Positions 8,063 through 26,789 of a DNA stretch of 34,562 bases are shown here, piece by piece (position 1 is the first letter of the stretch; the number at the start of each line of letters is the position of its first letter). The notes below the pieces were generated by a model. It did not search any database. It was not told where the DNA came from and saw only the letters and a list, made by a program, of their open reading frames with translations. The stretch comes from a bacterium (lineage in GTDB: Bacteria; UBA10199; JADGCS01), in the NCBI GenBank assembly GCA_018812345.1, contig JAHJDR010000077.1, positions 1 to 34,562 of the forward strand. Direction: 5' to 3'. The translations under genes were made by a program, and so were the position numbers.

Positions 8063-8075
8063 ATTAGGAGGCATT

Positions 8076-8741: not shown

Positions 8742-8753
8742 TAGAGATGCTTT

Positions 8754-8933: not shown

Positions 8934-8955
8934 TTTTGAATGGAAAAGGTGTTTT

Positions 8956-9399: not shown

Positions 9400-9442
9400 G
9401 GTCAGACAAAAAGGAATAATAGGCTTTTTATAAGGAGTTGTT

Positions 9443-10759
9443 TTGTCAAATCCAATAGTGAACTTAACCAAGATGCCTGATTTGCGACGTCGCTTGGTAT
9501 ATACAGCTGTGATGCTAGCCATTTATAGATTAGGTGTTTTTATTCCCACGCCGGGAATTAATGTTGAAAAACTCAGAACCTTATTTACAGGAACTGGCGA
9601 TCAACAAACGATCTTTGAAATTATTAATTTGTTTTCTGGTGGTGCTTTAGAGCAATTCTCTATTTTTGCTCTGGGAATTATGCCCTACATTAGCGCGTCA
9701 ATTATTTTTCAATTGTTAACTGTTTCTCTTCCTGCCTTGAAAAAGTTGCAGGAGGAAGGAGAAGCTGGTCGCAATAAGATTAATCAATGGACTCGTTATG
9801 GCACAGTTGGTTTATCTCTACTCCAAGGTTTCTTTATTAGTTATGGTTTATTGAACCAAGGGTATGTGATGGGAACTGTCAGCGCACCTCGTTTCTTGTT
9901 CACAACAATGATCAGTTTAGCAGCTGGTACGTGTTTCATCATGTGGTTGGGTGAGCAAATAACAGAGCGTGGTGTTGGTAATGGTATTTCTTTGATCATT
10001 TTCTCAGGTATCGTAGCACGTATGCCCGGTGGCTTTCGTGATGCTTGGGTCAATCGAGGAGATTACTTTGGTGTATTTGGCTTTGTCATGCTTCTTGGTT
10101 TTCTCTTTTTATTGATTTCAACCATTATCTTTTTTGAGAGATGCCAAAGAAAGGTGCCCATTCATTTTGCCAAACGAATTGTAGGGAACAAGATGTATGG
10201 TGGTCAATCATCACATCTGCCTTTAAAAATAAATATGGCAGGCGTGATTCCTCCTATTTTTGCATCATCTATTTTGTTGTTTCCCGCTACGATTGCTAAT
10301 TTTAGTTCGTCAACAAAGTTTCAAGCCGTAGCTAGTTTTTTCACAACAAATTGGGTTTATGTTACTCTGTATGTCGGTGCGATTATCTTTTTCACTTATT
10401 TCTATACAGCAGTGACCTTTAACCCTTCAGATGTGGCTGATAACTTAAAGCGTAATGGTGGTTTTATTCCAGGCATTAGACCCGGGAATCCCACAAGTGA
10501 TTATTTAGATAATATCTTAACAAGAATCACATTGGGCGGTGCTTTATATTTATCTTTAGTGTGTATTTTGCCACAGTTTTTGATTTCTCAATTTAATATT
10601 CCATCAAGCTTAGCTTATACATTTGGTGGAACATCTGTCTTGATTGTTGTTGGGGTCGCGATGGATACTGTCGCTCAATTAGAGTCCCATTTAATCTCAA
10701 GAAACTATGATGGTTTCATGGGAGGGGCAAAATCAGGCCGATTTAAAGGAAGAAAGTAA
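9443..10759 (+). CDS. secY: Preprotein translocase subunit SecY
   Basis: 438 aa. A TTG start lies about 6 nt after AAGGAG. It is a multi-pass membrane protein with ALGIMPYISASIIFQLL and GISLIIFSGIV motifs. Synteny supports the call. Confidence 0.95.
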   Translation: MSNPIVNLTKMPDLRRRLVYTAVMLAIYRLGVFIPTPGINVEKLRTLFTGTGDQQTIFEIINLFSGGALEQFSIFALGIMPYISASIIFQLLTVSLPALKKLQEEGEAGRNKINQWTRYGTVGLSLLQGFFISYGLLNQGYVMGTVSAPRFLFTTMISLAAGTCFIMWLGEQITERGVGNGISLIIFSGIVARMPGGFRDAWVNRGDYFGVFGFVMLLGFLFLLISTIIFFERCQRKVPIHFAKRIVGNKMYGGQSSHLPLKINMAGVIPPIFASSILLFPATIANFSSSTKFQAVASFFTTNWVYVTLYVGAIIFFTYFYTAVTFNPSDVADNLKRNGGFIPGIRPGNPTSDYLDNILTRITLGGALYLSLVCILPQFLISQFNIPSSLAYTFGGTSVLIVVGVAMDTVAQLESHLISRNYDGFMGGAKSGRFKGRK

Positions 10760-11403
10760 TGAATTTAATTTTATTAGGACCTCCAGGAGCTGGAAAAGGA
10801 ACGCAAGCGCATTGGATTTGTGAAAAATTGGGTATTCCCCAAGTTTCAACAGGAGATATATTGCGAGCGGCTCGTAAGGATCAGACAGAACTTGGCAAAC
10901 AAGCAGAAACATATATGGTAGCGGGCAAGCTTGTTCCTGATGAGGTTGTTATTGGTATTGTACAAGAAAGATTGAAAGAAACAGATTGTTTAGAAGGTTA
11001 TGTGCTTGATGGTTTTCCTCGTACAGCAAATCAAGCATTGGCACTTAAAGAAACATTAGCCGCTAATAACACTCAAATAAATGCTGTTATTAGCATCAAT
11101 GTTCCTGATGATTTATTGGTGACAAGACTTTGTGGTCGTCGTGTTTGTAGTCAGTGTGGCGCTAGTTTTCACATTTCTTTTTCACCAAGCAAAACAGAAG
11201 GTGTTTGTGACCAGTGTAGTGGTTCACTGATGCAACGAAAAGATGATACAGAAGAGACAATTAGAGAGCGTCTCAATGTTTATCATGAGCAAACCAAACC
11301 CTTAATTAATTTTTATAAAGGGGAGAATGTGTTGCAATCGATTGATGGAACAGGTGAGATCAGTGATGTATGGTCAAGAATTAATAATATTTTAGGCAAA
11401 TGA
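10759..11403 (+). CDS. adk: Adenylate kinase with a zinc-binding lid
   Basis: 214 aa with a GPPGAGKGTQ P-loop. The lid carries CSQC...CDQC. There is a 1-nt overlap (TAATG) with secY. Confidence 0.95.
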   Translation: MNLILLGPPGAGKGTQAHWICEKLGIPQVSTGDILRAARKDQTELGKQAETYMVAGKLVPDEVVIGIVQERLKETDCLEGYVLDGFPRTANQALALKETLAANNTQINAVISINVPDDLLVTRLCGRRVCSQCGASFHISFSPSKTEGVCDQCSGSLMQRKDDTEETIRERLNVYHEQTKPLINFYKGENVLQSIDGTGEISDVWSRINNILGK

Positions 11404-11404
11404 T

Positions 11405-12157
11405 GTGATTGTCATAAAGTCTAAAGAAGAAATAAACAAAATGCGACAAGCGGGTAAGATTGTCGCTGATGTTCTTTATAAACTGAATGAGTTAGTAAAG
11501 CCTGGTGTAACGACTGAAGAGCTTGATTGTATTGCTCGTGATTACATTGAGTCGCAAGGCGGTGTCCCAACTTTTCTTGGTTATCATGGATTTCCACGTT
11601 CATTGTGTACATCCATCAATGAAGAAGTTGTGCATGGTATTCCCAGTCCAAAACGATTGTTAGAAGAGGGGGATATCATCAGTGTTGATTGCGGTGTTAC
11701 TTTGAATGGTTTTATTGGTGATGCAGCCGTAACGTATCCTGTTGGTTCAATCGATAAAGATGTTGAGCGACTGATTACGGGTACGCAGAAATCATTAGAG
11801 CGTGCGATTACAGCTGTTTTAGTGGATAATCGGATAGGTGATATTGGACATGCTGTTCAGTCCGTTGCAAAAGAATATAAACTGGGTGTTGTTCGTGATT
11901 TTGTTGGCCACGGTGTTGGTCGTAACATGCATGAAGAACCGCAGGTTCCTAATTTTGGGAAACCAGGAACAGGTCCTCGTTTAAGAGCGGGTATGGTGAT
12001 TGCTATTGAACCCATGCTGAATTTAGGTTCGCATGAAGTAGAAGTGTTAGATGATAAGTGGACAGTTGTGACAAAAGATCGTAAATGGTCAGCCCACTTT
12101 GAGCATACCATAGCAGTGACAGAAGAAGGACCAGAGATATTAACTCGGTATGAATAA
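11405..12157 (+). CDS. map: Methionine aminopeptidase type I
   Basis: 250 aa with a GTG start. [16 protein letters not shown], the metal-site context VVHGIP...SVDCG...GDAA...GHGVG...IEPM...EHT are present. Confidence 0.93.
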
Positions 12158-12168
12158 ATGGTGATGAC

Positions 12169-12390
12169 ATGGCAAAAGAAGATGTCATAGAAGTAGAAGG
12201 AAAAGTTATTGAACCATTGCCTAACGCAATGTTTCGTGTAGAACTCCCTAATGGGCACAAAATTTTGGCCCATATTTCAGGGAAAATGCGTATGCATTTT
12301 ATTAAAATTTTGCCTGGTGATAAGGTTAAGGTACAGTTATCTCCTTATGACTTAAATCGTGGACGCATTGTTTTCCGCGATAAGGGCTAA
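12169..12390 (+). CDS. infA: Translation initiation factor IF-1
   Basis: 73 aa with [41 protein letters not shown]. Confidence 0.96.
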
Positions 12391-12410
12391 AATTAAAATA
12401 GGTTGTTATT

Positions 12411-12524
12411 ATGAAAGTAAGATCTTCAGTAAAAAAAATGTGTGAAAAATGCAACATCATCAAACGTCGAGGTGTTGTACGAATTATTTGTAAGAACCCA
12501 AGACACAAACAAAAGCAAGGCTAG
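12411..12524 (+). CDS. rpmJ: 50S ribosomal protein L36 (bL36), zinc-binding form
   Basis: Hand-translated. The 37 aa read [37 protein letters not shown], with a CxxC...C...H pattern. Confidence 0.92.
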
Positions 12525-12541
12525 TGTAGGGATACAAATTT

Positions 12542-12596
12542 TTGAATTTCGGATTTCGAATTTGTTTCGGATTTCGGATTTCGATTTTAGGATTTA
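12542..12596 (+). repeat. ATTTCGG-heptamer hairpin element in the rpmJ-rpsM spacer, homologous to 7104-7160
   Basis: GTTTCGGATTTCGGATTTCGATTTTAGGATTTAAGGA aligns almost base for base with GTTTCGGATTTCGGTATTCGAGTTTCGGATTTAAGGA at 7131-7167. In the fold 12542-12560 / 12566-12584 with loop TTTGT, about 17 of 20 positions pair, 4 of them G-U. Confidence 0.85.
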
Positions 12597-12607
12597 AGGA
12601 GAAAGAG

Positions 12608-12991
12608 ATGCCACGTATTGCTGGTGTAAATATTCCAGGGAATAAAAAACTGCCCTATGCGTTACAATACATTTATGGTATTGGAAAAACATTTGCTTTG
12701 GAAATTGTTGAAAAAACAGGGATTAATCCTGAAACCAGAGCTGATGACCTAAATGATGATGAAATGGCAAAGATTCGTTATCTCTTAGAAAATGACTACA
12801 CGGTTGAAGGTGAACTGCGTCGTGATATCACAATGAATATAAGACGATTGATGGAAATCGGATCTTATCGTGGTATACGTCATCGTAAAGGGTTGCCCGT
12901 TAACGGTCAGCGCACAAAAACGAATGCGCGTACACGTAAAGGCCCAAGAAAGACAGTGGCTGGTAAGAAAAAGGCACCTACATCCAAGTAA
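12608..12991 (+). CDS. rpsM: 30S ribosomal protein S13 (uS13)
   Basis: 127 aa from ATG 12608 ([14 protein letters not shown]...). AAGGAGA lies at 12596-12602. The track's 12542 start would translate the repeat spacer. Confidence 0.94.
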
Positions 12992-13012
12992 TAATTAAGC
13001 CAAGGAGTAAAA

Positions 13013-13447
13013 ATGGCAACGACCACGGAAACTACAAAAAAAACGACTAAGCCCAAAGGTAAAGCAGCGGCCGGTAAGAGAAAGAAAAAAGTAAAAAAGA
13101 ATGTATCAGAAGGTATTGTACATATCCATGCAACATTCAATAACACCATAATAACAGTAACTGATAAAATTGGTGATGTTATTTGTTGGTCAAGCGCTGG
13201 AAATATGGGCTTTAAAGGGTCTAAAAAATCAACCCCCTTTGCCGCTCAACTTGCTTCAGAAGAAGTGGCTAAGCGTGCACAAGAAAATGGTGTTAGATCA
13301 GTTGTTGTGTATGTAAAAGGACCTGGTGCAGGACGTGAAACTGCTTTGAAAGCTTTAGGACATGCAGGTTTGAGAGTGCAACGCATTCAAGATGTGACTC
13401 CCATACCTCATAATGGTTGTCGACCACCAAAGAAGAGAAGAGTTTAA
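13013..13447 (+). CDS. rpsK: 30S ribosomal protein S11 (uS11)
   Basis: 144 aa with [18 protein letters not shown] and a basic N-terminal tail. Confidence 0.95.
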
Positions 13448-13457
13448 TGAAAGAAGA

Positions 13458-13528
13458 AAGCTGAAAGCTGAAAGGTGAAAGGTGAAAGGGAATGCTTCCT
13501 TTGACCTTTGAGCCTTGAGCTATCAGCT
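13458..13528 (+). repeat. AAGSTGA-heptamer hairpin in the rpsK-rpsD spacer
   Basis: AAGCTGA x2 and AAGGTGA x2 sit opposite TTCCTTT GACCTTT GAGCCTT GAGCTAT CAGCT. By my hand count 25 of 31 positions pair, with a recurring G-G mismatch once per 7-nt unit. Confidence 0.85.
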
Positions 13529-13536
13529 AGAAGATT

Positions 13537-14163
13537 ATGGCACGATATAATGATGCAGTATGCAAGAAATGCCGACGAGAAGGCATGAAGCTGTTTATTA
13601 AAGGTGAACGTTGTTATTCTGAGAAATGCGCGATTGAACGTCGTGAATATCCACCAGGGCAACACGGTCAAGGTAGACGAAAGTTTTCAGAATATGGCTC
13701 ACAGCTTCGTGAAAAACAAAAAATCAAACGTATCTATGGTGTTCTCGAAAAACAATTTCGTAAGATTTTCTGGGAAGCTGATAGACGAAAAGGTGTTACA
13801 GGTGACAACCTGATTCAACTTTTAGAAGCCCGTTTAGACAACATGGTTTATCGTCTAGGATTCGCTAACTCTCGTACAGAAGCCAGATTACTTATTGGTC
13901 AAAGACATTTCATGGTAAATGGAAAAACAGTGACTATTCCATCGTACATTACAAAAGCTGGCGATGAAATTGTTGTGAGAGAAAAAAGTAAAAAAATGAC
14001 ACGTATTGAAGAGTCTTTAAAAGCTGTTCAAAGACGTGGCGTTCCTGAATGGCTTGATCTTGATGAGACAAAATATTTGGGTAAAGTTAAGATGCTTCCA
14101 CAACGTGTACAAATTACAATGCCCATGAATGAACAATTAGTAGTTGAACTATATTCTAAATAG
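13537..14163 (+). CDS. rpsD: 30S ribosomal protein S4 (uS4)
   Basis: 208 aa with [26 protein letters not shown] and an S4-domain [12 protein letters not shown]. Confidence 0.95.
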
Positions 14164-14221
14164 GTAATGGGGTATAGGTTACAGGTTCCGGGAAATTTTT
14201 TCTGTCTGTTACCAGTTACCC
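14163..14221 (+). repeat. GGTWAYR-heptamer hairpin in the rpsD-rpoA spacer
   Basis: GGTAATG GGGTATA GGTTACA GGTTCCG sit opposite CTGTCTG TTACCAG TTACCC. The stems are 14170-14174 / 14217-14221 and 14177-14186 / 14204-14213, the latter with one U-U mismatch and two G-U pairs. Confidence 0.75.
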
Positions 14222-14244
14222 ACAAATAAAGGTGAGGATATAAT

Positions 14245-15282
14245 ATGAGTATTCCCATATATAAAAATTGGAGAAGTCTAATTCGGCCTAAGTTTATTGA
14301 AGTAGATAAAGACTCTCGTACAGATAGCTATGCTAAGTTTATTGCAAAGCCTCTTGAGAGAGGTTTTGGTTTAACTCTAGGCAATGCTTTGCGTCGTATT
14401 TTACTCAGCTCACTCCAAGGTGCTTCGATTACAGCTATAAAAATAGAGGGTGTGCAACATGAGTTTTCAACTGTGCCAGGTGTAAAAGAAGATGTTGTGA
14501 ACATTATTCTTAATCTTAAAAAGGTTAAGTTGAAATTACTTGATTCTGAATTTGCAAAAGTACGTTTGCATATCACGGAATCTGGTATTGTGACAGCTGG
14601 TGATATTGATACAGGTGGTCAAGTTGAAATTTTGAATCCTGATCAAATAATCATGACCCTTTCAGAAGATGCCAAAATTGATATGGAAATCGATGTTGAA
14701 ATGGGTAAAGGCTATGTGTTGTCAGAAGAGAATAAAAAAGAAGACGCGCCTTTAGGAACGATCTTTATTGATTCTCATTTCGCTCCTGTCTCAAAAGCTA
14801 ATTACACAGTAACTAACGCTCGTGTGGGACAAGTAACGGATTATGATAGACTGAATTTAGAAGTTTGGACTAACGGTTCTTTAACACCAGAAGATGCGGT
14901 AGCTTTTGCTGCTAAAATTCTAAAGGATCAGGTTCAGGTTTTTGTTAATTTTGATGAATATGAAGAACCAGAAGAAGAAGTTGTTATTGAACATGATAAC
15001 AGTTTCAATGAGAATTTGAATCGTCGTGTTGATGAGTTAGAACTCTCCGTTCGTTCAGCGAATTGCCTTCAAAATGCTAATATTAGACATATTGGCGAAT
15101 TGGTTCAAAAAACTGAAATGGAAATGCTTCGCACAAAGAATTTTGGCCGTAAATCACTCAATGAGATTAAAGAAATTCTCACAGAGATGGGACTTGGTTT
15201 AGGTATGAAAATTGGAGAAGCGTGGAGACCTCCTGAAGGACCACAAGTTGTGCGAAAAGTTGAAGAAGAATTAGAATACTAG
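14245..15282 (+). CDS. rpoA: DNA-directed RNA polymerase alpha subunit
   Basis: 345 aa with an [17 protein letters not shown]-terminal domain and [23 protein letters not shown] in the C-terminal HhH domain. Confidence 0.96.
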
Positions 15283-15283
15283 A

Positions 15284-15346
15284 TAGCTATTAGTAATCAG
15301 TAATCAGCTATCAGTATAATACTGAAGTCTGACGTCTGAAAGCTTA
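15284..15346 (+). repeat. CAGYWAT-heptamer hairpin in the rpoA-rplQ spacer
   Basis: TAGCTAT TAGTAAT CAGTAAT CAGCTAT CAGTATA sit opposite ATACTGA AGTCTGA CGTCTGA AAGCTTA. The apical stem is 15311-15316 / 15320-15325. Further out, only the TCAG/CTGA cores pair, at 7-nt period. Confidence 0.75.
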
Positions 15347-15360
15347 AGGATGAGGTAAAT

Positions 15361-15975
15361 ATGAGACACCAAGTTGCTGGAAGAAAACTAGGTAAAAAAA
15401 CAGCACATAGATTAGCCATGTTGCGTAATATGTCTACTTCCTTGATTAAGCATGGTCGTATTAAAACGACATTGCCAAAAGCCAAGGAACTTAGAAAAGT
15501 GGCTGATAAATTAATTACTCTAGGAAAAGCAAATACATTGCATGCGCGTCGTCAGGCTTTTGATTTTTTGCGCAGTAGGGATGCCGTACAAAAGCTTTTT
15601 GCTGAAATAGCCCCTGCTTTTACAAAAAGAATGGGTGGTTACACACGCATTTATCACATGGGTTCACGAGCTGGTGATGCTGCCAAAATGGCTATCATTG
15701 AGTATCTAGCAGAAGATATTCTTACAGCTAAAGTAGACGGCACTGTTACTGAAGACACAGCAAAAAAGAAAAAAACAGATAAGAAAAAAGTAACTAAGAA
15801 AGCCAAAGCTGAAACAAAAGCGCCAAAGAAGGAAGCAAAAACAGAAAAGAAAACAACAGTGAAGAAAGCTCCTGCTAAAGAAAAGGTTACTGAGAAAAAA
15901 GCTAAGGCAACAACTAAAAAACCAGCTGAAAAGAAAGCGGCAACGAAAAAGCCCGCTGCTAAAAAGACAAAGTAG
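15361..15975 (+). CDS. rplQ: 50S ribosomal protein L17 (bL17) with a Lys/Ala/Thr-rich C-terminal tail of about 85 aa
   Basis: 204 aa. The conserved core runs [24 protein letters not shown]...[28 protein letters not shown](A/T)-rich tail follows from residue ~120. Confidence 0.93.
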
Positions 15976-16160: not shown

Positions 16161-17552
16161 CTAAGAAGTTTGCTTATGCACAATAATTTTCTGATTTACA
16201 AATGTATAGAAAAGTAGGTGTTTGATACGATAGTTAAATATCACAAATCCCATAAGAAGCGAGATAAGACAGCTGCCAAAATACCCATAACCATACCAAG
16301 AAAATCCTAGATAAATAGAAAGACGTGCAAAAACAATATTAGTGACGGCAAAGATAATAGACATAATCAGGGCATCTGTTCTAAAATCAAAGTACAAAAT
16401 GATAATTAAGAGTGTCTGTAGCAAGGCTTGGAGAAACGTTGCTAAAATGGCAATTTGAAAAACACCTAAGTTAACGGCAGACATGCTGAGATAGTCATAA
16501 ATAACTGGCGAGAGTCCTAAGCCAACCATAGTGATAGTGCCTTGGAGGACAAGGAGACGTCCCAAACTTAATTGAAGATCTTTAATGATGTTTTTCCGGC
16601 GTTCTTCAATGGCAAAATAGGGGTGTTTGTTTAATATAGAAAGAAAATATTTCTGATAATGTATGTAAAAACTTGTTTCAATGCGTACCGTAAACATAGC
16701 CAAAGAGGGAACAATAAAGAGGTAGGCCAAAAAGACTGGTGTGTCATAAACATAGGATGCATGCAGAAAGTTGTGAACCTTTTCATTCGTTTCCGGGGTA
16801 AACCAGAAGACAAATTTATCACCCCAGACACCAATATTATAGAAGGTTGCAATAAAGGCCAGAGAGGCAAAGCGTTTAAAGTATGATATAAAATACCATT
16901 CAACACGCATTCGATAGTCAAATTCTGTGAATATCTGGAGAACAAGTAAAATGACTAATACAACTTGGCCCATCGTAAATCCTGAAATAAGTCCCATGAG
17001 ACCGTAGTCAGAGCAAAGAAAACGGCCTGCCAACACACTAATGCTGGCACCAATGAGAAAAGAAATAAACAATCGGTGGAATTCCTTTGCTGCTGACAGC
17101 ACAATCATGGCAATCCAAAGAATGCCGATATTGACAAAGAGGACAATAGCCATGATTTCTGTTCCAAAATCAAGATCAAGGTACAGAATGCCTACAAACC
17201 CAATAATAGCGTGTAGGATCATAGAGAGTATGGTCATACCAACAAAAGAGGGCACAAGGGCCTTGTAGTCCTTGAGGAATATCTTATCTGCCATGTAGCG
17301 TGTGATAATCATTTGCGCTGGAGACGAGGTAACAAGTGATACACCATAAATGTAAACGACGAGTGTGCGAAAAATCATGACATCTAATGAACTTACGCGA
17401 TCATTTGCTACCCAACTGAGTAAGGCGATAGAAAAAATCGTACATAAAAGAGGGCCTGCAGAAACCATAGCAGCATAGGCATAGCCTTCTAAGAGGTTTG
17501 TATAAGAGTTTTTCGAGAGGATTTTTTCTAATCTAAATCCAATTCCAGCCAT
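16161..17552 (-). CDS. pelG: PelG-like polysaccharide export / synthase-complex membrane protein
   Basis: 463 aa and about 12 hydrophobic helices. The N-terminus MAGIGFRLEKILSKNSYTNLLEGYAYAAMVSAGP matches my memory of the PelG MAGIGF... start. It is the last gene after pelF, as in pel operons. Confidence 0.8.
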   Translation of the reverse strand: MAGIGFRLEKILSKNSYTNLLEGYAYAAMVSAGPLLCTIFSIALLSWVANDRVSSLDVMIFRTLVVYIYGVSLVTSSPAQMIITRYMADKIFLKDYKALVPSFVGMTILSMILHAIIGFVGILYLDLDFGTEIMAIVLFVNIGILWIAMIVLSAAKEFHRLFISFLIGASISVLAGRFLCSDYGLMGLISGFTMGQVVLVILLVLQIFTEFDYRMRVEWYFISYFKRFASLAFIATFYNIGVWGDKFVFWFTPETNEKVHNFLHASYVYDTPVFLAYLFIVPSLAMFTVRIETSFYIHYQKYFLSILNKHPYFAIEERRKNIIKDLQLSLGRLLVLQGTITMVGLGLSPVIYDYLSMSAVNLGVFQIAILATFLQALLQTLLIIILYFDFRTDALIMSIIFAVTNIVFARLSIYLGFSWYGYGYFGSCLISLLMGFVIFNYRIKHLLFYTFVNQKIIVHKQTS

Positions 17553-17645: not shown

Positions 17646-19112
17646 CTAAATATATTCCTCATACAACGTTCTATACGATACAATCATATCTCTAAAATTA
17701 TATGATGTTCGTGTTCGTTCCAGACCTGCTTTTGCCATTTTTTGATAGAGTTCTTCATCTGAAAGAATTTTAACGACAGCGTCAGCTGTTTTTTCAGGAG
17801 AATGGAACTCCGTGATAATACCACTTTCTCCGAGCATTCTATCATCAGCATCTTTTCCTTCAAGAAGCTCGCGACACGAGCCAACATCTGTTGCCACAAT
17901 GGGAATGCCACAAGCATTGCCTTCAAGAATAACCAATGGTTGGGCTTCACTGATGCTTGTTAATACGAGCAGATCAATATTTTTTAAATAGTTTCGGATG
18001 TCTACGTGGCCTGTAAAAATAACATGATTACTGAGACCCATGGTTTTAATGAGTAAGCTACACTCTTGATAATATTGTGATTCCTCGTCTTGGGGACCTA
18101 AAATGAGAATTCTAATATCCTCTATTCTTTGTGAAATAATTTTACAGGCTTTGATGAAGGTTTTAACATCTTTAATAGGCACAACGCGGCCAATAAAGGC
18201 TATCGTGTTTCTTTTCTTTTTTTCAGGACGACTATTGGCAATGTCTTCATACATTTTTACGTCAACGCCGTTGGGAATAATGGAAATTTTATGTGCTTCT
18301 GCACCGTCCTCAATTTCAGAGATCTTATTTCCGTTGTAGAGTGTGGTGATTTCATCAGCAAACATGTACGTGATTTTGCTCATGACCTCAAAGTAATGCA
18401 TCCACCAATCTTTAAAAAAACCAAACTCTGATATTGCTTTAATGTATTCTGTTTCTTTTTCGTAAAGCCAGCTTGCTTGCGCAATTTCTATGCGTCTTTC
18501 TTTAGTATAAATACCATGCTCTGTAGCGATCATATTGCTGTTGAACTTTATTTTAGCAAGACTCGCCATGATGCCAGCATATCCAGTAGAAATTGTATGA
18601 TAGAGAGGTGCTGGTGGAATTTCAGCTTTAATGAGTTGCATGATAGGCAGAAAAGTAAATCGATAATTCCAAAAGAAGTCGAGAAACGAAACGCTAGGAT
18701 CACCTTCTTCATAGAGTTTTCGTGTGGCTTTCCAAAAATCTCGTGAATAAAAGGAGTAAGTCATATTGAGCTTTTGTCGTTCTTTCAGGCGTTCTAAAAG
18801 GAATAGCTCAATGCTAGATTTGTCTTGGAGTTCTATGCCTTGAAGAAAGAGCCTAAAGAAATCGAAAATTTTAGGTGTTTTCTTGTAATGGCGTTCTTGA
18901 AAATGAAAATCGTGTAAATATATATGACAAATACTTTCTACATTAGTGGGAACATTATAACGTTCAATTTTTGTATCATTAGGTGTGGGCATAATGGAGA
19001 TAAGCGAAAACTTTATTTCAGGCATGGCTGTAATCAACTGATGAACCCACGTGGACACGCCACCACGGACATAGGGATATGTTCCTTCGAGCACGAGACA
19101 AACATCACTCAT
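17646..19112 (-). CDS. pelF: PelF-like GT4 glycosyltransferase
   Basis: 488 aa. The N-terminal DVCLVLEGTYPYVRGGVSTWVHQLI is the PelF-type N-domain hallmark. The C-terminal GT4 E-x7-E region is SEAQPLVILEGNACGIPIVATDVG. It has an ATGA overlap with the upstream gene. Confidence 0.85.
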   Translation of the reverse strand: MSDVCLVLEGTYPYVRGGVSTWVHQLITAMPEIKFSLISIMPTPNDTKIERYNVPTNVESICHIYLHDFHFQERHYKKTPKIFDFFRLFLQGIELQDKSSIELFLLERLKERQKLNMTYSFYSRDFWKATRKLYEEGDPSVSFLDFFWNYRFTFLPIMQLIKAEIPPAPLYHTISTGYAGIMASLAKIKFNSNMIATEHGIYTKERRIEIAQASWLYEKETEYIKAISEFGFFKDWWMHYFEVMSKITYMFADEITTLYNGNKISEIEDGAEAHKISIIPNGVDVKMYEDIANSRPEKKKRNTIAFIGRVVPIKDVKTFIKACKIISQRIEDIRILILGPQDEESQYYQECSLLIKTMGLSNHVIFTGHVDIRNYLKNIDLLVLTSISEAQPLVILEGNACGIPIVATDVGSCRELLEGKDADDRMLGESGIITEFHSPEKTADAVVKILSDEELYQKMAKAGLERTRTSYNFRDMIVSYRTLYEEYI

Positions 19113-21097
19113 AAAACCCCCTCTTCCACAAAAGATTTAGCCAGGCTCTTGGCAATTTCGCCAGACCTAAGCCCCTGGTTTTCCTCAGCAATTTTCACCA
19201 AATCATGAATGATGCTCAAGTCCTTAATAGGAATAAGCAGTTCAATAACTAAACTGCGGACACGATCATCATCAACACGCAAAAGGGCAATGAGTTGTTT
19301 TTGAAGTTGTTTCACGCGGGTCAGTGATGATTTCTTGAGTATGAGAGCCAAAACAGTTCTTTGCCATCCTAGTGATTGTGATGCCAATGTTGTTGTAAAT
19401 TGTTGTGCGACCTCAGTTTTTGTGAAGAATATACGGTACACGTTATCGGCAATGACTTTATGTTCGTTGGCATCTGTGATGTTTGTGTACTTCTCAAAAA
19501 GAATAAGACTTAAATTATGATAAAATGAAATATCTAATGTTATAGGGATGTACCTAATGATATCCTCTGTTTTGCTGAAATCACAATTCCTAATAAAATT
19601 AAAAAGAATATCAGAGTAGTGTTCACAATAATAAGAAAAATTATTTTGAATAACTTCGAGTTCTGAGGTTGTTTGAGATTTTTTATAACAGGAGATAAGA
19701 AAATAGAGTGTTTCTTGTGATGGGGCAAATTCAAGCACTTGTAGGGCAAGATAGCGAACATTAATATTGGTTTCTTTTTCTAGAATTCTCATGATTGTAT
19801 CCAAAAGCTCGTCTGGGGCGAGTCCGAGGCCACGACGTCTGATGAGATACTTTAGGATAATTTGTTTCTGTGTTGGTGAAAACGCTTCATGGCTGACCGT
19901 TTCAAGAATTTTCGATTTGTCATTAATGCGCCACATTTTTGTGAGTGCCATGGCTGCTGCATAAGCACTTGATAAGCCTTCTTTCAATAATAGGTACACA
20001 GTATCATTATCTTCTTGGCGCCACGTTTTACTTAAAGCTACGAGAGCATTGTAAGAACTGGAAGGATCTTTGAAAATAAACTGTGTAATGACCTCGAGAT
20101 CTTGATGATCAGCGATATGGCCAAGGGCTTGTAAACAGGCTTGTATAATGGTTTGATCCTTGCTTTTTAACAGCATTTTTCGGAGATATATTTTATGGGC
20201 ATCATCATCAGATCCAAATTTGCCCAGTCTGAATATTATTTCAGCTTTAATGTGTTTGTCTGAAGTGTTGCGTAACTTAAAAAGATCATCATGCTTAAGA
20301 ACGGATTGTAAGCGATCGAGAGATCGAGAGGCAATAAGCCTCGCTTTTTGATCTTTATCTTGTGTGATAATCTTGAGTAAAGGTTTAATGAGTTTGGCAC
20401 TGGGGATGAGACCAGATATTTTGATGAGTTCATAGCGTGTTTCGACATCCTCCTCTTTTCTTATAACCTTTAGGAAATGACGAACAGCTTTTTTTGGTCG
20501 TCTGAGAGATATTGCGTGCGCGGCCTCTAGTTTAATCTTTTTATCTTTACTGTACATGAGTTTGGTGAATGTTTTCCAGGGAACTTGATAAATCCATTGA
20601 GAAAGGACTTCCACAGCCTTTAGGATAAGAGTTGGGTCTTTGGCCTTAAGGGCTTTGCTAATTGTTTTGGCGCTAAAGGGATCATTGATGCGTCCAAAAG
20701 CTTTTATGATTTCTTGGCAAATTGGTTCGTCATCAATAGAAAATATTTCATTAAGGAAGGGTATGGCGAGTGGATCACCTAAGATTCCCAGAAGCTCAAT
20801 AGCTGTAACCAGGACGTTAGTGTCAGGACTTGCTAATTGATTGATGAAGAAATTTGCCTTCTCCGTTTTATGTGACCAGCTCAAAATACGTTTGATTTCA
20901 AATTTAATGGCTTTTTCTTCAATGAAGTAGATAAGGAAGATTTTAGCTAAGTCTAAATCAGCATATTGATCATTCAGAGATTGGCATTGGTATATTTTTT
21001 CTCCAATAGTGAGTTCGGAAAATTCTTTTTCAAAGGCGACCAGTTGTTCCAAAGATGATGTTTCCGAGAGGATAATATGTTTTATGTGTTTTTTCAT
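19109..21097 (-). CDS. Cytoplasmic HEAT/armadillo-like repeat protein with no canonical Pel counterpart
   Basis: 662 aa with no TM segment or signal peptide. It contains repeated HEAT-like modules, for example VTAIELLGILGDPLAIPFLNEIFSIDDEPICQEIIKAFGRINDP and KDPTLILKAVEVLSQ. There is an internal duplication, SSYNALVALSKTWRQEDN versus SAYAAAMALTKMWRINDK. The start abuts the pelE-like stop (TAAATG), and the stop overlaps the pelF start (ATGA). Confidence 0.7.
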   Translation of the reverse strand: MKKHIKHIILSETSSLEQLVAFEKEFSELTIGEKIYQCQSLNDQYADLDLAKIFLIYFIEEKAIKFEIKRILSWSHKTEKANFFINQLASPDTNVLVTAIELLGILGDPLAIPFLNEIFSIDDEPICQEIIKAFGRINDPFSAKTISKALKAKDPTLILKAVEVLSQWIYQVPWKTFTKLMYSKDKKIKLEAAHAISLRRPKKAVRHFLKVIRKEEDVETRYELIKISGLIPSAKLIKPLLKIITQDKDQKARLIASRSLDRLQSVLKHDDLFKLRNTSDKHIKAEIIFRLGKFGSDDDAHKIYLRKMLLKSKDQTIIQACLQALGHIADHQDLEVITQFIFKDPSSSYNALVALSKTWRQEDNDTVYLLLKEGLSSAYAAAMALTKMWRINDKSKILETVSHEAFSPTQKQIILKYLIRRRGLGLAPDELLDTIMRILEKETNINVRYLALQVLEFAPSQETLYFLISCYKKSQTTSELEVIQNNFSYYCEHYSDILFNFIRNCDFSKTEDIIRYIPITLDISFYHNLSLILFEKYTNITDANEHKVIADNVYRIFFTKTEVAQQFTTTLASQSLGWQRTVLALILKKSSLTRVKQLQKQLIALLRVDDDRVRSLVIELLIPIKDLSIIHDLVKIAEENQGLRSGEIAKSLAKSFVEEGVL

Positions 21098-22099
21098 TTA
21101 ATTTAGCCAGTATTTCATGATATTTTTATTCAGTCCTTTTAACCCTTTTTGTTCTGCAAGTGCTATAAGCTCTTTTAATTCAGTGTATTTTCTTTCTTCA
21201 AGAAGCAGAGCCCATTGAAGTTCATGATATTGGGGTACTTTGTCATTGTTTTGTATACAGCGATTGATGCATTCCTCGGCCTTCTCAAATTTTTTAAGAG
21301 AAAAATAGGTTTTAGCTCTTATGAAGGTGAGATCAGAGGTTTCCTGTATGTTATCAATTATTTTGATAATTTCCTCATAGTAATAAGATGCGGAGACTTT
21401 ATCGAGCAGGTTACTTGTGGCATAGGCCAGAAATACATTTACAAGTTCTTCCCCTAGTTTTTGGTCATGCGGATCTTGTTCAACTTTTAAGGTTAGCGTT
21501 TTGATCTGTCTGGCAAAATCATCTTCAATCTTCCCTAAAATCCCAGCGGCAAGTAAACGAATTTCAATTTCTTTATCCATGAGGGCCAGCATAAGACCAT
21601 TGATCGCTTTTCTGCTTTCAATGCCTCCTAAAAGCTTTACAGCACTTTTCTTTAAAGATGTTTCACTGCTTTTGAAAATATCAACAAAAGGAGCAATGTC
21701 AGCACGGTCCATGACCTCAATTTGACGTGATCGATTGAGAATCTGCTCATAAACTTTGGCATCAGGAACATTTATGACATCTTCCACTATGGGGGGTGGT
21801 CGCGAATCACTTAGCGCTTGAGCCATATAGATAATTATGGAACTGTAAATACCAAAGACAGGCATTGTGAGACATATCGTTGTGGCATAAACAAGCCATA
21901 AGTTGTGATTCTTTTTTCTGTATGCATGTTCATAGGTTAGAAAGAAAAAGCCCGTGATACAGACTAAAGAGCTTACGGCATGGTAATACAGGGCATCTTT
22001 CAGGGTCACAAAATTATTGTGAAAGAGGATGTCAATCACAGGGATCGTGAGCGCGATAGAAACAAGAAAGAGGAAATATGCTATTATTTTGCGTGCCAT
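21098..22099 (-). CDS. pelE: PelE-like inner-membrane scaffold protein (N-terminal TM helices plus a helical-repeat cytoplasmic domain)
   Basis: 333 aa; PelE is of similar size, about 330 aa as I recall. N-terminal hydrophobic helices include IIAYFLFLVSIALTIPVIDILF, VSSLVCITGFFFLTY and LWLVYATTICLTMPVFGIYSSIIIYM. A HEAT/TPR-like helical domain follows (SAVKLLGGIESRKAINGLMLALMDKEIEIRLLAAGILGKIED). The position directly after the pelD-like gene fits. The call rests on architecture and synteny only. Confidence 0.6.
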   Translation of the reverse strand: MARKIIAYFLFLVSIALTIPVIDILFHNNFVTLKDALYYHAVSSLVCITGFFFLTYEHAYRKKNHNLWLVYATTICLTMPVFGIYSSIIIYMAQALSDSRPPPIVEDVINVPDAKVYEQILNRSRQIEVMDRADIAPFVDIFKSSETSLKKSAVKLLGGIESRKAINGLMLALMDKEIEIRLLAAGILGKIEDDFARQIKTLTLKVEQDPHDQKLGEELVNVFLAYATSNLLDKVSASYYYEEIIKIIDNIQETSDLTFIRAKTYFSLKKFEKAEECINRCIQNNDKVPQYHELQWALLLEERKYTELKELIALAEQKGLKGLNKNIMKYWLN

Positions 22100-22100: not shown

Positions 22101-23501
22101 CTAAAAACCTAATGCTGACAACATGTCATGGGGTCCTTCCATTGTATTTGGGTTATAGGGAACAACAATAACAGAGTCCTCAAATATTTGATTTGTTAGG
22201 ACTTGATCGAGTTTATATTCTTTTATTTTATCAATAATTTTAGTTTTAATACTTTCTGCTTGTGGGCCTGATGTGCACGAGAGCAATAGTGTAAAAGGTG
22301 TTTTGTCGTTGGGCGAATTTGCTAAGATATCAAACTCTCTGAGCTGGTAGTTAATGAGAGAAACAAGCGATGCTATGATGGCCTGCTTTTTATCATCTGG
22401 CAGTGTCATGAGTTTTGGCCAGTTAAAACCCACAAGAGAGAGAGGGAGCATATATAGTTTTGATCGCTTATATTCTTCTTCAAGGCGTGCTGATAAATAG
22501 TGATATTTATACAAGCCTTCTATGTCGCCTGTAATTTGCAGATCTTTAATATCTTGAAACGCATGAGCTGTATTCAGTGATGAGGCTGCTAAACCACAAA
22601 TAATACGAGCTGTTTGAATCGTTGAGTCCGTTAGTTTGATGAGAGGTATTTTCTCAATGCTGGCAACACCATATACTTTGTTATCCATGCCAATAAGAGG
22701 AATTGCCAAAACAGTATCTCCTAAAACATCTGTTTCTAATTGATCAGCTGTTTTCTTTTTAAACAGAATATCTTTGAGTGAATATACTTGTGCTTTTTTT
22801 GCCGCTAGACCAATCAGCCCCTTGCCTATGCGATAGCTTTCAGGTCGTTTATAGTAATCTTTCCAACCCATTGATTGATAAAGCTTAAGATCCTGGTCAG
22901 TGTTTGTGTAATAGGAGCATTCCTCTGCATGAAGATATTTTTGAAAACATTCTAAAAGACCAGTGTAGACAACGTTCGGATCACGTGAATTAAGTTTTTC
23001 AATAATGTCATTAAGTGTGGTGATTGTTTCTTGGGATGTGGCCACATCAACCGAGAGATCTTTATGGGCTTCTTTGATGATCTTGTTTTCTGTCATGAGG
23101 TTATTGTTCAGATTTTCCAGTTCCTCAACACGGGCTGTAAGAAAATCTTCTCTCAGAATAAAGGTGGTTTTAATTTCACCTATAAGAAAACCAATGAGAA
23201 AGAAGAGAAAAGGAAATCGTAAGATCCAAACATTGTCATAGAAATAATCTAGACCTTGCGTGATGAAAAGATATACAAGAAAGGTAAGAGCCGCAAGGAT
23301 GCTGGCTAATAAAGCGCCGCCGCGGCCGTAGCGAGCGGCTATACCAATGACGATAATCCAATACGGGTGAGGGGTGATGTCAACAAAGGCAGGATGCTCT
23401 GGAAAGAGAAAAACATTGAATAGAATGAGGCCTAACAATCCTACAAAGGTTTCAAAATAGAAAAATCGAGTGCGTTTTATTTTAACAAGTCGTTCGTACA
23501 T
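22101..23501 (-). CDS. pelD: PelD-like c-di-GMP receptor (4 TM, coiled coil, GAF, degenerate GGDEF)
   Basis: 466 aa. It has four N-terminal hydrophobic helices and a coiled coil (ARVEELENLNNNLMTENKIIKEAHKDL). A GAF-like segment reads IGKGLIGLAAKKAQVYSLKD...LAIPLIGMDNKVYGVASIE. The C-terminal domain opens like GGDEF (YLSARLEEEYKRSKLY) but lacks GG(D/E)EF, having SPNDK instead. It keeps an RxxD motif (REFD, aa 388-391). Confidence 0.75.
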   Translation of the reverse strand: MYERLVKIKRTRFFYFETFVGLLGLILFNVFLFPEHPAFVDITPHPYWIIVIGIAARYGRGGALLASILAALTFLVYLFITQGLDYFYDNVWILRFPFLFFLIGFLIGEIKTTFILREDFLTARVEELENLNNNLMTENKIIKEAHKDLSVDVATSQETITTLNDIIEKLNSRDPNVVYTGLLECFQKYLHAEECSYYTNTDQDLKLYQSMGWKDYYKRPESYRIGKGLIGLAAKKAQVYSLKDILFKKKTADQLETDVLGDTVLAIPLIGMDNKVYGVASIEKIPLIKLTDSTIQTARIICGLAASSLNTAHAFQDIKDLQITGDIEGLYKYHYLSARLEEEYKRSKLYMLPLSLVGFNWPKLMTLPDDKKQAIIASLVSLINYQLREFDILANSPNDKTPFTLLLSCTSGPQAESIKTKIIDKIKEYKLDQVLTNQIFEDSVIVVPYNPNTMEGPHDMLSALGF

Positions 23502-23505: not shown

Positions 23506-23883
23506 TTATGAGGTGATGATTTCTCTCACCTTTTCCAATAAGCGATAAGGTTCAAATGGTTTTGAAGCGATATAGGCTTTTAAGTTATTTAAAAAATCTA
23601 TTTCATCATTCACGAGTTGCCGACTGCTCAAAACCAATACAGGAAGTTTTTCTAATTTATCTTCTTTCCGAATAGCTTCTAAAAGCTGAAACCCATTGAG
23701 CTTTGGCATCATGAGATCAATGATGACCATGGCATAATCTTGGTTTAAGAGTTCTGCGACGGCTAGAGACGAGTCATCGAGGGTTTTGACCTCAAAACCA
23801 CCATTAGTGAGCAAAAACTCAATAACATAACTGATGTCTGGTTCATCATCAACATGAAGGATTTTTTTAACTATTTCTGACAT
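23506..23883 (-). CDS. Stand-alone CheY-like response-regulator receiver
   Basis: 125 aa with the receiver hallmarks intact: VDDE acidic pair, IIDLMMP phospho-acceptor Asp, VLSS, and SKPF Lys. There is no output domain. GAGGT lies 8 nt upstream. The gene sits 11 nt after the pelB-like stop and 4 nt before the pelD-like start. Confidence 0.88.
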   Translation of the reverse strand: MSEIVKKILHVDDEPDISYVIEFLLTNGGFEVKTLDDSSLAVAELLNQDYAMVIIDLMMPKLNGFQLLEAIRKEDKLEKLPVLVLSSRQLVNDEIDFLNNLKAYIASKPFEPYRLLEKVREIITS

Positions 23884-23894: not shown

Positions 23895-26789
23895 CTAAAA
23901 ACGATAAAGTGTTTGTACAAAAAATTCTTGGTATTGACCTGATGTCAATTGAAGGCTTTCATTAGCAAATCCGTAGTAGCCTAAAATCTCAAATTTCTTT
24001 GAGACAATGTATCTATTTGTGAAACTAAAACCATAAAGATCTAAACCAAAAATCGATAAATTTCTTAAATGATCATGGCCGACGTAAGCCCTGGCTTCTG
24101 TGCGCCATTTATCAGTCCAGTCATGATAAAGTTCAATAGAAAACTCATTGCGCGCAGATTCTTCAATAAGAGGGATGAGATGACTGTACTCATTAATCTC
24201 ATGAAACTTTTGGTAAGTAAAATCATAACCAAATCTTATTTCAGGCTTTCTGTTAACGATGAGATCAGCACTCAAACGGACAACGTCTTCACGGCCAAAA
24301 AGATCTCCCATATCTGTATCTGTTTTGTTTGAATCAACAGCATACCAATTGCTTGTGTACTGTGCGCTGACAAAAGCCTTGGTTGCTATGGCTTTTTCAT
24401 AGGTTATCTGAAAGCCACTTTTGTTCGTATCAAAGTAAACAACTGAAGCAGGAAGGGTGAGGCGTTCGGTAACAAATAGATCAACATTAAATCGACCAAG
24501 CTTTGGATGCTCCCAGTTGCCAATAAGGTGTCCTGATAGCGTGTACTGTGCATCGACGATTTTATGTGTCGCGATGGCAGTGAGATCAAAGAGGGGGTTA
24601 GGACGGAAATTAGCGGTTGTTTTAACGGTGTTAGCATAAATAGCAAAATCAGAATCAAAGTTTACTACGTTTGCTTTGTCGAGATTAAGGCCATATTCAA
24701 ATTCAAACCACCAGGCATTACTGAGAGGATGGTGATAGAGGAAATAGGGTTCAACACTATCATCATTTCCCATACGTACCCAACGCACACCCGCAGCCAG
24801 ATAAGGGTGTGTGAGCTTGAAAATATCATCATGTGTTTTTTGAAGCTCTGTATTCTCAGGGTAGTGATCGCGTAATTCTTCAAAAAGTGGCAGTGCTGAA
24901 AAATACTCTTTCATTGTGCTGTATAAATAGGCGAGCTCTGTTTTTACCGATAGATCAAGGGGGGTTTGTTTGAGTAATTTCTTGAGAATCTTTTCTGCCT
25001 TATAATATTCAAAGCGTAGATTGTGGATACGCGCCTTTGATTTGAGTAAGGCATAATTATCTGGGTATTCTTTTAAATAACGTTTAACAAGGCTATAGGC
25101 TTTTTCCGCTCTGTTTACATCAGCTAATGTGTCAATATAAGCTGTCATGAGTTCTATGCTTTTTGGATCTTTTTTGAGTAACGTCATAAAGAGCTGATCT
25201 GCCTTATCATGTTGATCTAGGAGTGTAAGTATGCGTGCTTTAGTTGTGAGGATTAAGAAGTCTGTTTCCTGATCAGAGATCAGGGTAAGGGCTTTATTGT
25301 AGTATGATTGTGAGATGGCTTTTCTGTTTTGTGATCTGTAGAGTTCTGCCAGACGATAGTGAGGGTAATAATCTTTTGGTCGTTTTGTGGCATAGATTTG
25401 CATGTATTTTTCAGCTTTTAGAGTACGGTTTTGTGTAAAGTAAATATCACCTAGATATTTTAAAATATCGGGATCTGAAGCATTATTTTCTTCAAGATAG
25501 GTGAAAACTTTTAGCGCTTTTTCAAGTTTGTTAATCCAGAAATATCGTTCTCCCAACATTTTCAACAAGGAATAATTTTTTGATTGCCAAGCTGTGCTGG
25601 CCAAAAGATCATTGGCTTTATCTTCCTTTCCGTCTCGATCATACATTTCAACCATCAGAAGAACATATTCTTGATTGTGCGGATATTTGTGAATCAGTTT
25701 TGTGAGTACATTATAAGCTGTATGATAGGCTTTAATATCAAGGAGCATCCATAAAAGTTTTTTATTGTTGTCTTCATTTTCTGGATCTTTTTTAAAACGC
25801 GCTAGGTAAATAGGAATGAGTTTATCTTTTACATTGTTCCATTCATATAGTTGAACAAGCGTTTGATAAAAATAATCGTTTTCATCTGTCGTTTTCACAT
25901 GTTTTTCGAGAAAAGCTATGGCCATCTTTTGTTGGTTTGTGCTGATCATCCACTCGACATACGATTTTTTGAGGTCACCTTTAGACGCATAAGTTTTCAC
26001 CCATTTTTCATACCAATTATTAGCTTCAATAAACTTTTTGTTATTGGTTTCAAAACCGATCAGTCTTTGCCAATGTTTTGGGTTGTCAGCATAGTGCGTG
26101 ATATTTTTTATGAGATATTTATGCGCTTTCTCTAGTTTATTTGAAAAACTAGCCAAGACAAGTAAACGATCTAGGGCAAATTCCTCTTCACTATTATTAT
26201 CAAGAATGTTTTCTAAGAGAGTCATTGTTGCCCAAAGGTCTCCTGTCTTTTCATGGAGGCTAATCAAGTCATTTGTGATTTGTTGATTCCCTTCGCTAGG
26301 ATCTGTGATCTTTTGCCAGTTAAGAATAGCAATGGCCTCTTTGTATTCTTGATCAAGCAAGTAAAAGGCATAGAGCTTATTTAAAATTTGTTTTCCAGCA
26401 TTGTCTTTAAAATAAATGTCTTTTTTGATTCTGTATTTGTACCATTTTCTGTAGATTTCTTTTTCTTTCTCTGGCTGTTCGGTCCAGGAATAAAAACGAG
26501 CGGCTTCGACAAAATAACTTTCTTTTTCTTTTTTGTTAATGAGCTTATCAAAGAATTGACCAGCCTTAATGTGATCACCAACATTTTCAAAACTTTTTGC
26601 TAGGTATTGAATAGCGCGATAGTTGTTTGGATTTTTTTCGTAAAGTTCTGAAAAGGCTTCAATGGCTTTGTCAGAATCTTTGCTTTGATAATACATCCAA
26701 CCCTTTCGCATTTTTGTTGGATGTAAAATGAGAGCTACAAAAAGTACAAGACAGGTAAAGAGGAGAAGTTGCCACCATTTAATTCCCAT
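23895..26789 (-). CDS. pelB: PelB-like protein (N-terminal anchor, long TPR array, C-terminal outer-membrane beta-barrel)
   Basis: 964 aa with an N-terminal hydrophobic anchor WWQLLLFTCLVLFVALIL. About 600 aa are TPR-like, with A/Y/L periodicity such as AIEAFSELYEKNPNNYRAIQYLAKSFENVGDHIKAGQFF. The C-terminal ~280 aa have alternating beta-strand character and end ...FFVQTLYRF, an aromatic OMP terminus. Confidence 0.78.
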   Translation of the reverse strand: MGIKWWQLLLFTCLVLFVALILHPTKMRKGWMYYQSKDSDKAIEAFSELYEKNPNNYRAIQYLAKSFENVGDHIKAGQFFDKLINKKEKESYFVEAARFYSWTEQPEKEKEIYRKWYKYRIKKDIYFKDNAGKQILNKLYAFYLLDQEYKEAIAILNWQKITDPSEGNQQITNDLISLHEKTGDLWATMTLLENILDNNSEEEFALDRLLVLASFSNKLEKAHKYLIKNITHYADNPKHWQRLIGFETNNKKFIEANNWYEKWVKTYASKGDLKKSYVEWMISTNQQKMAIAFLEKHVKTTDENDYFYQTLVQLYEWNNVKDKLIPIYLARFKKDPENEDNNKKLLWMLLDIKAYHTAYNVLTKLIHKYPHNQEYVLLMVEMYDRDGKEDKANDLLASTAWQSKNYSLLKMLGERYFWINKLEKALKVFTYLEENNASDPDILKYLGDIYFTQNRTLKAEKYMQIYATKRPKDYYPHYRLAELYRSQNRKAISQSYYNKALTLISDQETDFLILTTKARILTLLDQHDKADQLFMTLLKKDPKSIELMTAYIDTLADVNRAEKAYSLVKRYLKEYPDNYALLKSKARIHNLRFEYYKAEKILKKLLKQTPLDLSVKTELAYLYSTMKEYFSALPLFEELRDHYPENTELQKTHDDIFKLTHPYLAAGVRWVRMGNDDSVEPYFLYHHPLSNAWWFEFEYGLNLDKANVVNFDSDFAIYANTVKTTANFRPNPLFDLTAIATHKIVDAQYTLSGHLIGNWEHPKLGRFNVDLFVTERLTLPASVVYFDTNKSGFQITYEKAIATKAFVSAQYTSNWYAVDSNKTDTDMGDLFGREDVVRLSADLIVNRKPEIRFGYDFTYQKFHEINEYSHLIPLIEESARNEFSIELYHDWTDKWRTEARAYVGHDHLRNLSIFGLDLYGFSFTNRYIVSKKFEILGYYGFANESLQLTSGQYQEFFVQTLYRF

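Follow-up and report, generated by a model that had tools for sequence, protein, structure and literature searches.

In Pseudomonas aeruginosa, the synthase genes pelD, pelE, pelF and pelG for the cationic GalNAc/GalN polymer Pel stand in this order within pelABCDEFG, and PelF, a soluble GT4 glycosyltransferase, depends on helical-repeat and transmembrane (TM) partners to keep it at the membrane. Extra soluble cytoplasmic proteins are found in the cellulose synthase system, in which the operon-encoded BcsE, BcsQ and BcsR are built onto the synthase and supply further regulatory inputs. In Myxococcus xanthus, the single-domain receiver CheY7 binds Cpc7, a bacterial HEAT-repeat protein of ~27 helices (PMC11514114). 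Here we analysed a 34,562-nucleotide stretch of bacterial DNA (assembly GCA_018812345.1, contig JAHJDR010000077.1; GTDB lineage Bacteria; UBA10199; JADGCS01), referred to below as the window, which contains a ten-gene minus-strand operon encoding a receiver (RR1), a GH114 hydrolase, a 695-aa protein, a PelB-like protein, a second receiver (RR2), PelD-like and PelE-like proteins, a HEAT-repeat protein, PelF and PelG. The HEAT gene (19109–21097, minus strand, ATG start) encodes a protein of 662 aa, assigned as a soluble alpha-solenoid from its open reading frame (ORF), HEAT_2 matches, structure model, synteny and dN/dS. With a probability of roughly 0.6, we consider it a dedicated accessory protein of a distinct and widespread variant of the Pel-type synthase cluster, arranged as receiver–PelD–PelE–HEAT–PelF–PelG, in which it would serve as a scaffold or adaptor in the cytoplasm.

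Our comparison with P. aeruginosa reveals that the window retains PelD-like, PelE-like, PelF and PelG proteins in the same order, with the RxxD motif of PelD kept, and likewise encodes a soluble GT4 enzyme that has to be retained at the membrane through helical-repeat and TM partners. The differences from pelABCDEFG are an extra HEAT solenoid (620–680 aa) between pelE and pelF and an extra receiver before pelD. In addition, the GH114 hydrolase and the 695-aa periplasmic protein are encoded by separate genes upstream of pelB, and no gene for a pelC-like lipoprotein is present in the window operon, in which all ORFs are assigned. The HEAT protein resembles PelE in its alpha-helical repeats, its place in the same module, its PBS/HEAT-type similarity (BLASTP, 28% identity over 75 residues, E = 0.03) and its similar evolutionary rate. 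By comparison, PelE is membrane-anchored, half the size and found in all Pel operons, whereas the HEAT protein is soluble and belongs to one operon type. Like the Bcs accessory proteins, the HEAT protein is an extra soluble cytoplasmic operon product; those proteins, however, are derived from ATPase, REC or GGDEF domains and have no sequence or fold relationship with the solenoid. As with CheY7 and Cpc7, a receiver and a HEAT protein are co-encoded and co-inherited here, and the two may likewise interact. This is distinct from the setting of Cpc7, which belongs to a chemosensory cluster controlling development and not to a polysaccharide synthase.

A sequence-only reading of the window had placed the HEAT gene in a tightly coupled pelD–pelE–HEAT–pelF block, with its start on the base after the pelE-like stop and its TGA overlapping the pelF ATG. 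Both junctions are borne out when the sequence is read: the pelE stop and HEAT start form TAAATG (21095–21100, minus strand; TAA at 21100–21098, ATG at 21097–21095), and the HEAT stop and pelF start share the 4-nt overlap ATGA (19109–19112, minus strand; TGA at 19111–19109, ATG at 19112–19110). No Shine–Dalgarno (SD) sequence was found upstream of the HEAT ATG in the sequence read at the junction, and a strong SD of pelF (GAGGGGG) is encoded within the final HEAT codons (VEEGVL and stop; 19109–19135, minus strand). The C-terminal E-E/x-G is kept in the close clade, where coding and the pelF SD may impose a double constraint. The junctions place the HEAT protein in one coupled translation unit with PelE and PelF, and the recurrence of the 4-nt overlap in related loci agrees with the tightly coupled block. 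The overlap and the lack of an own SD also suggest stoichiometric co-synthesis with the neighbours, as might be expected of a transient factor or chaperone acting during complex assembly, which stabilises PelF or PelE and is gone from the mature machine; solenoids often serve as assembly chaperones. The present data do not separate such a transient factor from a stable subunit, and related operons that lack the HEAT gene assemble without it, and we regard this alternative as distinctly improbable.

The placement of the HEAT gene is widely conserved. A word-indexed search recovered 16 full-length homologues (587–662 aa, 33–85% identity), and members of the close family were present in five of 185,579 species-representative genomes; these are without exception uncultured metagenome-assembled genomes (MAGs), four labelled 'Pseudomonadota' and one 'bacterium'. 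All five genomes, together with one JGI contig, show the order (RR)–GH114–~700 aa–PelB–RR–PelD–PelE–HEAT–PelF–PelG and the 4-nt overlap of the HEAT stop with the pelF start. The same overlap is found in most related loci; it is 8 nt in L009 and L029, and one clade has small gaps. In a search with PelF, identity falls in a step from 58–67% (the window clade) to ≤49%. Beyond this step, a HEAT_2 protein of 651–656 aa lies between pelE and pelF, and a receiver of 114–123 aa lies before pelD, in five loci: a Deltaproteobacteria MAG (L009), an Elusimicrobia MAG (L010), a metagenome contig (L011) whose PelF is an identical protein to that of a RIFCSPLOWO2 Deltaproteobacteria MAG, Candidatus Auribacter fodinae (L093) and another MAG (L094). 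The HEAT protein of L009 is a remote homologue of that in the window (hhalign probability 98.5, 21% identity, 413 columns), and the linkage holds where PelF is only 42–48%, and the HEAT protein 15–20%, identical to its window counterpart. By comparison, L008 and a Breoghania genome (L012) contain neither the HEAT gene nor the receiver.

This picture was extended with a HMMER profile scan covering 1.84 billion representatives. Among the matches listed were ~25 close clusters and 14 distant full-length proteins of 645–664 aa; the remaining ones listed were long generic HEAT proteins matched in the repeat region only. Each of the 14 distant proteins has its best match, over the full length (23–100% identity), to a pel-embedded HEAT gene. 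The 150 best matches listed included no natural protein in which the HEAT protein is fused to PelE, PelF or a receiver, and the full-length proteins among them were all 620–664 aa long. The HEAT gene lies directly upstream of pelF in 31 of 92 annotated loci (L001–L092, three redundant fetches included). Wherever context is visible, full-length relatives of 620–680 aa stand between pelE and pelF, under several phylum-level labels; homologues detached from pel genes, which would have spoken against the original proposal, were not encountered in any visible context. These observations show that the HEAT gene has been kept between pelE and pelF across very deep divergence. HEAT_2 repeats abound (the HEAT profile matches 16,914 proteins at E ≤ 0.001), and an unrelated generic HEAT gene could in principle have become a chance passenger of the operon. 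The invariable position of the 620–680-aa relatives in visible contexts and a dN/dS of 0.07 argue against such a passenger; the linkage data contradict this explanation, to which we give almost no chance.

The co-occurrence analysis envisaged by the sequence-only reading was run as a PelF-centred scan of metagenome contigs, using the 80 of 435 confirmed matches that lie closest to the window PelF (PelF identity 40–96%), annotated with locally built hidden Markov models (HMMs); this similarity-ranked sample is uninformative on the overall frequency of the HEAT operon type. Besides the linkage to pel genes wherever visible, it revealed joint inheritance with the receiver. Among loci with a readable region upstream of pelD, 23 carry both the HEAT gene and the receiver, one carries the HEAT gene only, 32 carry neither and none carries the receiver only. 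After clustering at 95% PelF identity, with L093, L094 and the window itself included, the corresponding counts are 22, 1, 16 and 0, and at 60% PelF identity they are 10, 1, 4 and 0. In a neighbour-joining tree of PelF, the HEAT-type operons form several deep clades or a basal grade. L008 (7892–9981), the sister of the window clade in this tree, has neither the receiver nor the HEAT gene and lacks the GGDEF-like domain of PelD; its PelD is 357 aa long and ends just after the GAF domain, with a clean pelD–pelE overlap. Judged from its gene content, L008 looks like a joint loss of all three elements. Taken as a whole, the counts and the tree show joint inheritance and joint loss of the HEAT gene and the receiver gene that immediately precedes pelD.

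RR2 and the HEAT gene occur together, and are lost together, almost without exception, which raises the alternative that the HEAT protein is a signalling output device, in which the solenoid is the docking target of phosphorylated RR2 and switches PelF or PelD, instead of a constitutive structural subunit. RR2 (23506–23883, minus strand, 125 aa, PF00072) has its phospho-acceptor set complete (D12/D13, D56, S86 and K108), and CheY7–Cpc7 provides a precedent (PMC11514114). On the other hand, RR2 adjoins pelD and not the HEAT gene, its evolutionary distances track those of PelD (partial r 0.52) over those of the HEAT protein (0.30), and one locus, L027, keeps the HEAT gene without RR2. We regard this alternative as possible, if on balance unlikely; it is not exclusive of the scaffold model, with which it is compatible.

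The window protein is a PBS/HEAT_2-class repeat protein without a dedicated family model. Its match to HEAT_2 (PF13646) reaches 97.6 bits (E = 5.2e-28, cut-off 27.7) over four stretches, and an AlphaFold2 model built from a 17-sequence alignment is an all-alpha solenoid of 43 helices (~21 helix pairs) with no strand and a mean pLDDT of 87.6. The make-up of HEAT/PBS-type helical pairs, which had been proposed from the letters with LLGILGDPLAIPFLNEIF (residues 102–119) as an example, is consistent with both results. The pTM of 0.58 puts less confidence in the shape of the superhelix than in the local repeats. Hydropathy revealed neither a TM segment nor a signal peptide, in agreement with the earlier proposal; the sole hydropathy peak (residues 95–113) includes E, D and P and lies within a HEAT helix. 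The structure comparison that had been called for returned matches to generic scaffolds only: Foldseek against the PDB retrieved HEAT/ARM proteins (importin-beta, SF3B1, CAND1, PP2A A subunit and alphaRep) at query-normalised TM-scores of 0.23–0.39. A sequence/profile search of the PDB retrieved almost exclusively designed repeat proteins, mostly alphaRep (E = 3e-34), and two natural HEAT-repeat proteins with much weaker E-values. The likeness to alphaRep/PBS_HEAT consensus proteins, importin-beta, the PP2A A subunit and CAND1 is that of a shared repeat class and solenoid fold; it is generic and allows no shared function to be inferred.

In alignment A3, which comprises 24 HEAT sequences down to 15% identity, M1 and Y449 are the only invariant residues, and R189, A192, D217, L240, Y349, A381, Q412, N444, N446 and L450 are nearly invariant. 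Four of these positions (N444, N446, Y449 and L450) make up the family-wide signature NxN[IV]RYL, present in the window as NINVRYLAL (19742–19768, minus strand). The internal duplication previously noted in the protein is real: one ~30-residue helical unit is repeated in tandem (19916–20059, minus strand; residues 347–364 and 377–394, 9 of 18 identical). It lies inside the most conserved HEAT motif and coincides with the region of lowest model confidence (residues 330–400), and the corresponding 30-residue insertion is confined in the alignment to the window protein and five close relatives (P0001, P0003, P0004, P0005 and P0007). The isoelectric point varies from 5.9 to 9.6 across the family; therefore, charge complementarity with an acidic receiver is not a conserved trait.

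These data also bear on whether the HEAT protein could be an enzyme or a small-ligand receptor built on HEAT-like repeats, as in the CpcE/F and NblB precedents or as a nucleotide or c-di-GMP binder, acting on a precursor or the polymer. A weak NCBIfam match to NblB (NF045915, 42.3 bits) and the basic motifs RLGKFG, IRRRG and DQKARL, conserved in the close clade, would fit such a role. The NblB score, however, is far under the 300-bit cut-off, which places the protein outside the NblB/CpcE/F class by this measure, distant orthologues do not retain the basic motifs, and the Foldseek matches are scaffolds only. An MshEN-like reading of RLGKFG was rejected, as the next hydrophobic positions misfit and distant orthologues lack the motif. 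Furthermore, A3 contains no invariant catalytic-type polar residue (H, C, D, E, S or K) and no His/Cys/acidic cluster. The lack of conserved catalytic-type residues contradicts an enzymatic role, and we hold this explanation to be very improbable. The resemblance of the modelled solenoid to scaffold proteins, together with the absence of a conserved catalytic-type residue, suggests instead a scaffold-like role.

Consistent with a functional gene, the HEAT gene evolves under constraint. Relative to the closest relative, L013, whose PelF is 96% identical, dN/dS is 0.072 for the HEAT gene, 0.074 for PelE, 0.029 for PelF, 0.045 for PelD, 0.042 for RR2 and 0.043 for PelG. This value and the full-length homologues in many contigs indicate that the HEAT gene is under purifying selection and is not a chance ORF. 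Over 19 complete operons, mean pairwise identity is 21% for the HEAT protein, 24% for PelE, 30% for PelD, 35% for RR2 and 50% for PelF. In an exploratory correlation of distance matrices after regressing out PelF, the HEAT protein tracks PelE (partial r 0.67) more closely than PelD (0.43) or RR2 (0.30), and RR2 tracks PelD best.

The PelE-like protein (21098–22099, minus strand, 333 aa) contains N-terminal TM helices, one PBS/HEAT-like repeat and a TPR-like C-terminus. The sequence-only reading had noticed the HEAT-like stretch and had taken it, with the HEAT protein, as a possible expanded cytoplasmic scaffold. The stretch itself is real (residues 136–203): it scores 22.5 bits with HEAT_2, below the cut-off, has strong alphaRep matches and contains invariant P137, D140, A153 and R181. 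The special pairing does not follow, since PelE of both operon types has the TM region, one such repeat, the TPR-like tail and a C-terminal Trp (W331); the repeat is a general PelE trait and is therefore no evidence for a PelE–HEAT pair. The architecture of this putative PelE fits that of a TM anchor with cytoplasmic helical repeats, and the protein is conserved across 20 operons.

A working mechanism can be outlined for the scaffold model. The HEAT protein would bind the helical-repeat domain that PelE has in the cytoplasm, and perhaps PelD as well; once docked, it would hold or orient the soluble glycosyltransferase PelF at the membrane, and it could make the activity of the synthase respond to whether the receiver is phosphorylated, alongside the sensing of c-di-GMP by PelD. 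We infer physical association of the HEAT protein with the Pel synthase, and the scaffold is probably tied to phospho-signalling. Several observations weigh against this reading. The HEAT-less operons encode PelE, PelD and PelF proteins that are comparable in size and architecture, and therefore present no obvious gap for the HEAT protein to fill. No PelF residue or indel tracks the presence of the HEAT gene cleanly; the only candidates, S123 and W236, are both kept in the HEAT-less L008 and thus provide no usable interface signature in PelF. The correlation with PelE is confounded, as both are fast-evolving repeat proteins. The co-occurrence with the receiver rests on few independent events, namely one clear co-loss and one loss of the receiver only. 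The latter concerns L027 (4801–5680), in which the HEAT gene is found without a receiver and PelD carries instead, in the same ORF, a coiled-coil-like extension of 290 residues that is rich in E, A and K and matches no Pfam family. Finally, all carriers of the HEAT gene found are uncultured.

A bolder version of the scaffold model, which we advance tentatively and think unlikely to hold in full, is that phosphorylated RR2 docks on a HEAT/PelD assembly and thereby licenses PelF as a phosphorylation-dependent gate, and that this form of the system is the ancestral or a major environmental Pel. If so, polymer synthesis would depend on a two-component phospho-signal as well as on c-di-GMP at PelD, both acting post-translationally, and the Pseudomonas pelABCDEFG would be a reduced version of the receiver/HEAT form.

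The assignments of the neighbouring genes support the identity of the locus as a Pel-type cluster. PelF (17646–19112, minus strand), a GT4 glycosyltransferase with DUF3492 and Glycos_transf_1 matches, scores 488.5 bits with NF038011 against a cut-off of 100, and PelG (16161–17552, minus strand) scores 412.5 bits with PF16933 (E = 3e-123); both are unambiguous. Elsewhere in the sample, eight loci (L022, L028, L030, L032, L035, L037, L044 and L059, seven of them from sample Ga0272440) contain PelF-like genes of ~545–560 aa, followed in seven of the eight by a gene for a ~420-aa REC-containing protein. No PelD, PelE or PelG was detectable nearby in these loci, which may represent an orphan PelF-like system.

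The PelD-like protein (22101–23501, minus strand, 466 aa) is composed of TM helices, a GAF domain and a degenerate GGDEF domain, as are PelD-like proteins of both operon types. The A2 profile of these proteins matches the P. aeruginosa PelD structure 4euv (E = 3e-9) and DgcR, and the RxxD motif of the window protein (LREFD) aligns with the I-site of DgcR; from this alignment, PelD of the window type has probably retained c-di-GMP reception. Another arrangement is seen in L040 (4082–6286) and L053 (3873–6092), where the order is pelF–pelG–...–pelD–pelE and PelD, of 734–739 aa, contains three consecutive GGDEF-like segments.

At the upstream end of the operon, RR1 (29820–30263, minus strand; PF00072, E = 1e-28) is a single-domain receiver, as is RR2. 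The stop codon of RR1 shares one base with the GTG start of the GH114 gene (28984–29820, minus strand; PF03537, E = 3e-23), which encodes 278 aa equivalent to the hydrolase domain of PelA. It is followed by the gene for the 695-aa periplasmic protein, labelled PelA2 (26884–28971, minus strand), which lies upstream of pelB and occurs in all pel loci examined. This protein has no Pfam match, and its relatives give a weak DUF2194 match. The functions of PelA appear to be split over the GH114 gene and this adjacent protein. The PelB-like protein (23895–26789, minus strand) was assigned from TPR families and synteny and consists of TPR repeats with a C-terminal region.

RR2 occupies the position that pelC has in pelABCDEFG. 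A PelC HMM search of the HEAT-type loci found no match, with a model that was built from one high-GC clade and is too narrow to settle absence. A receiver acting as a simple replacement for pelC was rejected, because L093 (4738–5292) and L094 (4727–5302) have an ORF of 184–191 aa just before the receiver, in addition to the receiver; the ORF of L094 is PelC-like, with a weak LpoB match, and that of L093 gives no Pfam match.

As to the wider setting, plus-strand regions (244–15975 and 30322–33260) flank the operon, with a ribosomal-protein/SecY/RpoA/L17 cluster on one side and genes for a carbon–nitrogen hydrolase, an agmatine-deiminase-type PAD_porph protein and a NIF3 protein on the other. 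The PAD_porph protein likely belongs to a putrescine route. The window has a GC content of 37.9%, and the closest named relatives of its RpoA (77–78% identity) are 'Deltaproteobacteria bacterium' MAGs and 'bacterium K02(2017)'.

A systematic survey of pel operons described locus gains, pelB fission and rearrangements, without mention of a HEAT protein or a response regulator (PMC7112194). No report linking a HEAT-repeat protein to a pel operon was found in the searchable literature, and nothing relevant appeared among the best-ranked papers containing both 'PelF' and 'HEAT'. Within that literature, the HEAT component and its Pel variant are undescribed, in keeping with the initial view that the HEAT protein, being outside the seven Pel proteins, is not a canonical Pel component.

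That an exopolysaccharide operon encodes accessory proteins is no surprise in itself. A natural Pel variant with two extra conserved cytoplasmic parts provides a second handle on how a glycosyltransferase is held and switched at the membrane, and the association with a receiver suggests two-component signalling that acts post-translationally on a biofilm polymer. Furthermore, the Pel operons of many uncultured lineages, including MAGs labelled Deltaproteobacteria, Pseudomonadota, Elusimicrobia and Candidatus Auribacter, differ from the Pseudomonas model, and annotation of Pel capacity in metagenomes by gene content should reckon with the HEAT/receiver variant.

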